64,000 bases of DNA from assembly GCA_951406725.2 (NCBI GenBank), contig OX597817.1, forward strand, positions 156,488,001 through 156,552,000. Direction: 5' to 3'. The notes beneath the pieces were generated by a model. That model made no database searches. It saw nothing but the letters and a program-made list of their open reading frames with translations, and was not told where the DNA came from. Of the stretch, positions 13,201 through 16,200 are shown piece by piece. The DNA comes from Octopus vulgaris. Lineage: Eukaryota. The position numbers and the translations under genes are program-made. Position 1 is the first letter of the stretch. Every line of letters begins with the position of its first letter.

Positions 13201-16200
13201 TAATTGTCATATATATATATATATATATATATATATATATATATATATATATATATAAATATATCTATCTATCTATCTATATAGATATATATAATTGTCA
13301 CTAAATGTGATTAGGGTGTTAGAAACACCTACATTGCTAGAAATAAGAGCTAAAATGCTCTAATGCTGTAGTCAATACACATAAATGTAAACATATATAC
13401 TAACAGGAACCTTAATTGTCCAAAGAATAGTGATCAAGAATTCCTAATACTGACGTCAGTTTCAGCAATTTCTGTTGCCTCATCAGTTAAGACTGGCTTG
13501 AACTTTGGCTCTTTTCAGACTCATTGACTACAGCTTTACTGCATTTTAGCTCTTATTTTTAGCAATGTAGGTGTTTCTAACACTAATGTTTTATATATAT
13601 ATATATATATATAAACCTTGTTGTAAATTATATGTATATAATTATTAACTATTTGTATATCGTAAGTCATTTTTACTATAAATTATATCACTATTATAAA
13701 GTAAAATTATACATAAATTACAATAGTCATTTGAGACACTTGACACCTCTGTTTCAGTGTCTTTTCCATATTCTGACTTTAAAAAAAAATTTTTTATATT
13801 TTCTGAAGAAGCCATAAGCACAATTAAGGGAAGAAGTTAAGAGAAATAATAATGTTTTTTTTAACATTGGTACAAGACTACAAAGGAGTGCATATCTCAG
13901 TTTTTATCAACTCCAGTCCTCGATGAGGACAGACTTCTTTAAGACAGGGACATTTGCATATGTCTACATGCACATACAATCACACATTTATGTGTCTATG
14001 TATACATGCTGCTGCCACAAAGAAGGATTGAGAAGTTGCATTACATTAAATTTCTCAACTTGAAATACTCGTGGCTACACATATTTATTCATATTCTTGT
14101 TTATCCCTGTTCCATACTGTGCTGCACACATTGGACAGTCCTTGGATGATTGCTGTAGCATATCAGTTTTTTTACTTCAAAAGGTTGCTTAAACCCTTTA
14201 GCAGCCCTTCATTTCTGAGGAAAAAGGACACTTGCAGTGGTCTCCCACAACTCTTCTCACAGTGCACCATAGTTGAATCCACAAGTGAAAGAGAGGGAGC
14301 AAGAGAATTGAACCTAGTTCTTCACTGATACTTTATCAGCTCTAGAAGGGTAGAAAGCAAAATGAAACCCTCTAAGATTTGAACTCAAGATACAAATCCT
14401 GCCGGGGTTGACCTGGCCTTTCATACTTCCAGGATCAATGTAATAAAGTCCCAGTGAAGTATTTGCAGATCAATTTAACCTATTAACCCCTTCCCCTAAA
14501 TTTCTAACTTTGTGCCCATAATTGTTAGAAACAATTATAATTAATTGTTATCATTCAGGGTGGGTGAGTTAATTAGTTTCCAGATAATTCTATCAAAGAT
14601 AATGCTTAATTATTCACATTTTTTTTTAATTAATCATGCATTATCTTGTAGTTTTGAGATGTTGATGATGTGGTTTGTTTTTACAATGACATTGTAGGGT
14701 AGGTGTGAGAAGCCAGATCTAGCCAATTTGAACATAAAACAAGAAGAATATTTTGGCCAGATATGGTCAGTTTAAGTGTTAAAGGGTTGTGGTATAATTT
14801 GTATTTTATTGGTTTTCTGTTCAAGTCATTCCATTAATTAACTTCACACCTCAGGGAAAACAATCAAGGCAAGATAATAAAATGATTTAAGTAAAGTGAA
14901 TTAACCATATCACTTCACACTCGCAAAAATATACCTCTAGATGAAAAAACCCCTAACAGCCTTATTATTATTATTATTATTATTATTACTGGTGGTGGTG
15001 GTGGTGGTTGTGGTGATGGTGTTGTCCGTCTTAAAAAATATAGGAGTTAAGTTGGCAGAATATAAGACATTTCCTGATTTACAAGTTCATACTCTGCTGC
15101 AGGCATTGTCTTCTGTACTTGGACAAGACTTATCTTTCTCTGCTCCAACGTACATTGTATCTAATTAAATCATAGTAATTATCCTGATGTTTGCAACATG
15201 GTTATTCATCTTTCCTTACATATTTTTTCATGTACATAATTATTATTTTTTTTTTTTTCAATTCCATTTATATACATCTATGTTTTTTGTCTTCTATTTC
15301 TGTGTGCTCTTACAGAGTGGTGGGTTGGTTAATGACACAACTAAGGTTGGTATCTGAGCCCTAACAACCATTTAGAGCCTCTATTCATTGTTCCTCTCTC
15401 TCTCCGTTGTTGTTGTTGTTATGCCCATGATCGCATCTCACTTCACCTATCGTTATGTCCCTGTGCTGCATGACTTACCCCCATTATAACATTCCACTTC
15501 CCTGAATGCTTTTCCCCTTTCACATCGATGTCATGTTTAATCATTTTGCTTAACACATTTTGCTGTCTTCCTTTCTTTATAACAATCCCCTAACTTTTCC
15601 TCATATTACAGTCATTTAATTAATGTTGTTTTGTAAAACAAACTCAAAGATTTATGGAAAAAAAGAATAATTTGGGGGATTTTGTTTTTCTTTTTTTTTT
15701 TTTATTTTTTTGGCCTCATGGTAGAGTCATGGTAATCTTTAAAAGACACACAGGCATTATATTTGTAATACAGCTTTAGGCTCTAAGTTGAAATCTCACA
15801 AAAGCTCAACTTCCAAGATTAAATAAAATACCACTCAAGTACTAAGGTTGATTTAATTAACTACCCACCTGATTAATTTCTGGCCTTGTACCTTAATAAG
15901 AAGTGATGTATTAACAGGTAACATCAAATTCGCCATTCATCAACAACCTACCTGGCCGGTGGCACTCTATTCTTTCAGTGTGATATGGTAGGAGCCATAC
16001 AAGCATAGTAACTGCTCTGCTGATATTGACATTTTATTGTGTGTAGATACTATTACCAGACTGAAGCATTATTACTATGTAATACTATACCTTGTATTAC
16101 TATACTTTATAATACTGTTGCAAAATAAAAATTTAAAAAGTGACTACAACAGCATATGTAGAAGCACTCCGTCGGTTACGACAACGAGGGTTCCGGTTGA

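Follow-up and report, generated by a model that had tools for sequence, protein, structure and literature searches.

Does the intron that separates the exons for repeats 6 and 7 of an octopus ankyrin gene hold a neural microexon at the junction where vertebrate ANK2 carries the insert MMVNRTTE and, if so, what is the origin of this exon, what controls it, and what would it do to the protein? A preliminary description of the locus had placed a 30-nt exon in phase 0-0 at positions 15316-15345, and all of its coordinates hold. The window, i.e. the whole stretch of 64,000 nucleotides that was analyzed, contains part of a canonical ankyrin gene on its forward strand (4186-63419, +). The 19 coding exons of this part, which encode ankyrin repeats and the beginning of the linker, are identical in residues to the Octopus bimaculoides protein P0048 (XP_014773636.1). 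The architecture is that of a canonical ankyrin, with 24 repeats, an atypical junction between repeats 5 and 6, ZU5-ZU5-UPA, and a death domain. Full-length proteins carry PF00791, PF17809, and PF00531, which we take to be the ZU5, UPA, and death domains, and the best fold match was 4RLV, with 74% identity.

Several features of the gene and its introns were observed in passing. The octopus models diverge directly after 63419: only some of them have a linker segment of approximately 30 residues, and the sequence then continues in one of two ways; the models also show two alternative N-termini. A 24-kb intron (36974-60940), far longer than its neighbours, lies between two late repeat exons. It showed no long coding frame, and neither this intron nor the rest of the 11-kb intron that separates repeats 6 and 7 yielded a further ankyrin-like exon. 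A 250-codon open frame within an intron (35857-36606, +) resembles part of a reverse transcriptase of the LINE type. The intron of the microexon contains a 700-base TA microsatellite (12590-13293), 2 kb upstream of the microexon. Probable SINE-like high-copy repeats were located at 14650-14750, 16200-16530, 17340-17680, 18060-18170, and 20250-20450, and here the contig depth was very high in each of the four sequencing runs used below.

The host intron (9071-20045, approximately 11 kb) is bordered by two constitutive exons. The upstream one (8885-9070, +), covering repeats 5-6 and ending in NADSSTK, was placed by sequence and protein match, and the downstream one (20046-20144, +), covering repeat 7 and beginning with SGFTPLH, by sequence, protein match, and splice joints. 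The cassette microexon between them (15316-15345, +) is AGTGGTGGGTTGGTTAATGACACAACTAAG, with the boundaries tacag and gttggt; its 10 codons include the core GGLVNDTTK, and the introns on both sides are in phase 0. The exon had been described as hidden and easily missed by gene predictors. This label was wrong, since the microexon is already annotated in 33 of the 65 O. bimaculoides models, RefSeq isoforms X1, X17, X20, and X22 among them, and skipped in the other 32. No other length variant of the repeat region was found in these models, and a first search had recovered the microexon in 22 of 48 octopus proteins.

The contigs of four sequencing runs were compared with positions 14000-21900, a range that includes the downstream joints and excludes the upstream ones. 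Two of the runs, X3 and X5 (organism A, two studies), are presumed to be RNA, and one contig in each contained the predicted joint 15345^20046 (GT..AG). The depth at this joint (287.9 in X3 and 116.7 in X5) was the same as at the joints 20144^21187 and 21285^21710. The joint was absent from X16 (organism B), which looks genomic and whose contigs span the introns. In X19 (organism C), both downstream joints were present and the microexon joint was absent, with a 3433-nt contig continuing upstream, from which we infer that the X19 transcript skips the microexon. The segment 15316-15345 is a real spliced, frame-preserving cassette exon, and its inclusion is alternative among the octopus models and presumably also between the X3/X5 and X19 transcripts.

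The preliminary description had suggested looking for a VNxTT insert in molluscs and annelids, and one is present in gastropods, bivalves, Owenia, and earthworm. The peptide GGLVNDTTK is unchanged in Biomphalaria, Elysia, Potamilus, Babylonia, Mytilus, Saccostrea, and the annelid Owenia, where three of the five models carry it. Table S2 of PMC5135030 (41 entries, of which the first 400 letters each were compared; 13 with and 28 without the insert) adds Aplysia and one earthworm paralogue with GGLVNDTTK and the other earthworm paralogue with TGSLANDTTK. Skip forms coexist with inclusion forms in Biomphalaria and Potamilus. Whereas nine residues of the insert are constant, the one before them can be S, D, T, V, or N, or be absent, as in heterobranch snails; an acceptor displaced by 3 nt would account for this variable first residue. 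Gastropods and bivalves have one extra constitutive residue ahead of the junction, which is missing in octopus. Two further proteins have short VNExTK-type inserts, AVNETTK and SVNEVTK, and in a quick tree (49 rows, P0208 excluded) the AVNETTK protein falls among spiralians outside molluscs. The counts for the 148 new representatives leave aside 54 without the anchor and 9 that run off frame past the upstream exon.

In chordates, an insert was found at the same junction in all three subphyla. It consists of 8 residues (24 nt) of the form (V/I)N-x-x-TE: WAVNAATE in amphioxus, RIVNRITE in Botryllus, ERINNTTE in hagfish, and MMVNRTTE in Clavelina, Ciona, ANK2, and ANK3. The alignment puts the octopus exon and the ANK2/ANK3 insert at the same junction of orthologous genes, between repeats 6 and 7, as had been proposed for ANK2, and in both cases whole codons are inserted. 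Zebrafish ankyrin proteins carry the insert; 13 of the 15 lizard ANK3 models contain it, so both forms exist, and none of the five ANK1 entries does. Among P0218, P0241, P0269, P0219, and P0375, some vertebrate ankyrins have extra residues, NGK or Q, after MMVNRTTE, and in one oyster model DFHSVG replaces the usual insert. These extra inserts at the repeat 6-7 junction suggest a hotspot intron or shifted splice sites. The inserts of P0289, P0300, and P0338 have other lengths (+34 ending in MINQTTE, +6 ending in IVNRTTE, and +8 ending in VDQPSK), and P0289 groups with a tunicate on a long branch in the quick tree.

Lineage presence was scored with one model per species, on sequences among which no hemichordate, brachiopod, or xenacoelomorph was identified. 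Among ecdysozoans, the insert was found in none of 34 named proteins, none of the 10 entries in PMC5135030 Table S2, and neither the Priapulus nor the Artemia models. It was likewise found in none of nine echinoderm and four flatworm models, nor in the outgroups (four cnidarians and the placozoan Trichoplax). When echinoderms and hemichordates were targeted, insects and vertebrates made up most of the matches, and the search favoured skip forms: 99 of the 102 new proteins lacked the insert. Absence from a single model is weak evidence, because the Lottia, B. floridae, and human AnkG entries of that Table S2 lack the insert although their relatives have it. For insects and nematodes, true loss or absence is likely, since many of their annotations are isoform-rich.

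The exon had been proposed to be bilaterian-ancient or else convergent, and the ancient origin is favoured: the inserts of octopus, other molluscs and annelids, and chordates rather likely descend from one bilaterian exon, with losses. When the last six residues were compared, octopus and bird ANK2 gave a BLOSUM score of 19; 10 of 21 orthologous repeat tails score at least that high, compared with only 4 of 420 non-orthologous repeat-tail pairs. For octopus and amphioxus the score was 14, a value attained by 18 of the 21 and 22 of the 420, respectively. The octopus and chordate inserts are thus more similar than unrelated repeat tails, in a test that is small and compatible with selection for the same partner contact. 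The slot itself does not force V-N-x-T-T, since skip forms have P/A-D-V-T/Q-S-K there.

The alternative is that the insert was gained twice in a hotspot intron, on the chordate stem (24 nt) and on the lophotrochozoan stem (27-30 nt), each version having been selected to end like an ankyrin-repeat tail. We regard this as unlikely, although with equal weights a history of two gains is shorter than one that combines a single gain with three losses, and the insert is unseen in the sampled ecdysozoans, echinoderms, and flatworms. Length (24 vs 27-30 nt) and last residue (E vs K) also divide by clade, the same intron has gained NGK, Q, and DFHSVG, and neural exons are described as often converging on the same position, with an outgroup conservation of approximately 3% (10.64898/2026.09.05.749416). 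On the other hand, the absences lose force where single entries miss an exon known in relatives, the tail similarity lies within the orthologous range and is rare among non-orthologous pairs, and there are the two additional VNExTK proteins, one of which falls among spiralians outside molluscs in the quick tree. Descent from one bilaterian exon is the history that we prefer.

The microexon is preceded by an AG-free, U-rich zone of 138 nt (15176-15313, +; 55% T, 71% pyrimidine), the preceding AG being at 15174. This zone is the longest among the 19 mapped exons, three constitutive exons having 112-118 nt, and only 7 of 1600 intronic YAG sites within the window have one that long. A UGC at 15305-15307 (+), which starts at -11 relative to the exon and 9 nt ahead of the AG, is a candidate eMIC (Srrm234) enhancer according to the motif meaning given in PMC8797185 and PMC12148930; a UGC occurs in the equivalent zone of one of 18 constitutive acceptors, and its chance at random sites is approximately 0.19. 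The AG-free zone, the U-rich tract, and the UGC at -11 of the eMIC-type acceptor first described for this exon were all confirmed. A CTAAT at 15161-15165 (+), at the 5' edge of the zone and 10 nt before the last upstream AG, may serve as a distant branch point, with its A at -152, and CTGAT at 15184-15188 (+) is a second candidate. The donor GTTGGT (15346-15351, +) is weak, with a score of 4.7 that is exceeded by 16 of 18 constitutive donors, and the consensus donor AAG/GTAAGT of the upstream exon has the top score, 13.7. A possible Rbfox site, UGCAUG, is indeed present at 15467-15472 (+), at +122, but it does not carry the weight once given to it as an enhancer, because 4 of 18 constitutive exons also have TGCATG within 300 nt and the 11-kb intron of the microexon contains 8 copies.

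In fly, eMIC-dependent exons have long AG-free zones, a UGC near the acceptor, a weak donor, and a strong upstream donor, as well as a CUAAY branch point and a UCUC-rich tract (PMC8797185), and the UGC is reported to act 2-20 nt upstream of the exon (PMC12148930). The octopus microexon agrees with this pattern in its AG exclusion zone and pyrimidine tract, its UGC at -11, and its donors; a CUAAY match is provided by the CTAAT at 15161, 152 nt away, and the tract ahead of the exon is mainly U-rich. Published definitions limit microexons to 3-27 nt in the strict sense or to 30 or 51 nt otherwise, and the exon has 30 nt in octopus, 27 nt in Biomphalaria (from peptide length), and 24 nt in chordates. 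Table S2 of PMC8797185 lists a 24-nt exon in mouse Ank2 (MmuEX0004901, 'eMICdep') and another in mouse Ank3 (MmuEX0004909, 'Neural'), which we equate with the 8-residue insert by length and early position in the gene, not by sequence. Since the same paper states that the eMIC domain is bilaterian-ancestral, molluscs are taken to express an eMIC isoform. By analogy with the mouse and fly exons, inclusion of the octopus microexon is probably neural and driven by the eMIC.

A real and old cassette exon might nevertheless not be neuron-specific, or not be eMIC-driven, in molluscs; broad inclusion would be one example, and regulation by Rbfox, MBNL, or Nova acting from the downstream intron another. 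Both organism A runs assembled the inclusion form, the 300 nt downstream of the microexon contain 5 YGCY, 12 YCAY, and one UGCAUG, and a lone UGC would occur by chance at approximately one-fifth of sites. Moreover, a zebrafish table of neural exons (PMC12626424, file 6) has no 24-nt ank2 or ank3 exon among its seven ank rows. We nonetheless consider such control improbable, as the AG-free zone, the UGC, the weak donor, and the strong upstream donor co-occur here as they do in eMIC targets, and PMC8797185 Table S2 classes the probable counterparts in mouse as eMIC-dependent and neural.

The probability that 15316-15345 is an annotation artefact, or an AG..GT frame that arose by chance in a long intron, is negligible. 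The 57 kb of intron do contain 991 mini-frames of the in-frame YAG..GT type, and the runs are only presumed to be RNA, but the joint 15345^20046 is present in two studies and missing from the run that looks genomic, and nine residues are identical in gastropods, bivalves, and an annelid, so that the spliced joint and the cross-phylum conservation of the peptide together rule it out. Among the 991 mini-frames, the microexon alone reaches its own acceptor and donor scores, which is a rank and not a p-value, as the threshold is set by the microexon itself.

A recent duplication of an exon end as the source of the microexon was unsupported, the best DNA match among 20 repeat ends being 18 of 30. 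The AGTGGT common to the microexon and exon 7 is not a conserved trace, since the first residue of the insert varies across species. A 337-nt piece from organism B (15070-15404) across the microexon region had one differing letter and two gaps. Its divergence, 1/337 compared with 45/3215 in seven other listed pieces, is borderline (Poisson p approximately 0.05).

With respect to the protein, GLVNDTTK scored 7.2 on a profile of the 21 other repeat tails of the gene, and the constitutive tail that precedes it scored 1.9; only 1 of 754 background 8-mers scored as high as GLVNDTTK. The chordate inserts fit this octopus profile poorly (-1.9 to 1.7). Because it ends like an ankyrin-repeat tail, the octopus insert would take the finger position. 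In an AlphaFold model of the Owenia inclusion form (mean pLDDT 90.8), the pLDDT fell below 50 only at residues 125-133, that is, at the constitutive tail plus the residue that opens the insert, and in a skip-form model the constitutive tail had a pLDDT of 86-89; the two models, each based on an alignment of 30 rows, are of different species, and the overall quality of the skip model is poor (mean pLDDT 68). These models predict that the insert takes over the finger between repeats 6 and 7 and that the constitutive tail loops out. Of the earlier idea that the exon lengthens the repeat 6-7 loop, the position thus stands, whereas simple lengthening gives way to a suggested replacement of the finger strand.

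The fingers of ankyrin line its binding groove, with site 1 formed by repeats 2-6 and site 2 by repeats 7-10 (PMC4358367), and this places the switch at the border of the two sites. The AnkB crystal constructs 4RLV and 5Y4D contain MMVNRTTE and represent the inclusion form, and ANK1 corresponds to the short form. The relevant passages of PMC4358367 and PMC5779224 do not mention the insert or compare inclusion with skip forms. The position of the insert leads us to propose that it may alter the binding of ankyrin partners.

Taken as a whole, our explanation is a ten-residue cassette microexon between repeats 6 and 7 that descends from one bilaterian exon and acts as a neuronal eMIC switch, and we give this combination somewhat better than even chances. 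Its first two steps are observed: 15316-15345 is spliced in, with gene models both with and without the microexon, and Mollusca and Annelida share the conserved peptide, with a similar one at the same junction in chordates. The weak donor and the long AG-free acceptor would then cause skipping by default, and the eMIC of Srrm234, acting at the UGC, would probably bring about neuronal inclusion. In the included form, the insert is predicted to become an ordered finger before repeat 7 and the constitutive tail a flexible loop, giving two alternative fingers, and the switch would tune which membrane partners or autoinhibitory segments bind at the border of sites 1 and 2. Finally, a single origin would probably have been followed by losses in ANK1 and ecdysozoans and by loss or non-annotation in echinoderms and flatworms.

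Already known are neural microexons as a class, the exon in vertebrates, and its annotation in octopus. The closest relatives of the octopus exon are the 24-nt exons of mouse Ank2 and Ank3, which belong to the same gene family and are likewise whole-codon cassettes at the repeat 6-7 junction encoding V-N-x-T-T. The octopus exon differs in its length (30 vs 24 nt), its end (K vs E), and its start (xGGL vs MM), and the regulation that has been shown for the mouse exons is presumed for octopus by analogy. Other neural microexons of ankyrin genes, the 12-nt linker exon of Ank2 (PMC12148930) and E35a of Ank3 (PMC12713133), are regulated by SRRM3/4 and other factors. They lie in disordered linkers and have been described only in vertebrates, whereas the octopus exon lies within the membrane-binding repeat solenoid. 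The giant ankyrin exon (PMC5135030) is found in the same gene, is alternative and bilaterian-wide, and is absent in cnidarians, as is the microexon; unlike the microexon, it is kilobases long, lies downstream of the UPA domain, and is kept in ecdysozoans.

A survey that covers octopus and amphioxus recognized only the microexons of APBB1/2/3 (6 nt) and MADD (9 nt) as bilaterian-ancestral neural microexons, under a rule that requires an insect (10.64898/2026.09.05.749416). The ankyrin exon resembles these two in being short, in-frame, shared by deuterostomes and protostomes, and located in an interaction protein. In contrast to them, both of which insects retain, it was seen in no ecdysozoan model, and it could not have passed a rule that requires an insect. 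The main text of the survey, supplements aside, does not mention ankyrin. We found no published link between the chordate, mollusc, and annelid forms of the ankyrin microexon, although the supplements of the survey or a 2019 eMIC paper may list it. Very few microexons date from the common ancestor of octopus, annelids, and chordates, and the insert likely belongs to them. That it is the third bilaterian-ancestral neural microexon, lost in ecdysozoans and working as a strand-swap switch at the border of sites 1 and 2, is a tentative proposal.

Neural microexon programmes are described as almost completely rewired between phyla (PMC8797185). If this tentative proposal is true, the exon would have persisted in chordates and lophotrochozoans for more than half a billion years, changing which channels and adhesion molecules neuronal ankyrin binds. 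Rules of ancestry that require an insect can miss exons that were lost in ecdysozoans and retained in molluscs and annelids. Inclusion of the insert is, furthermore, a candidate variable in ankyrin biochemistry, as the AnkB crystals are of the inclusion form and the insert lies where the two binding sites meet.
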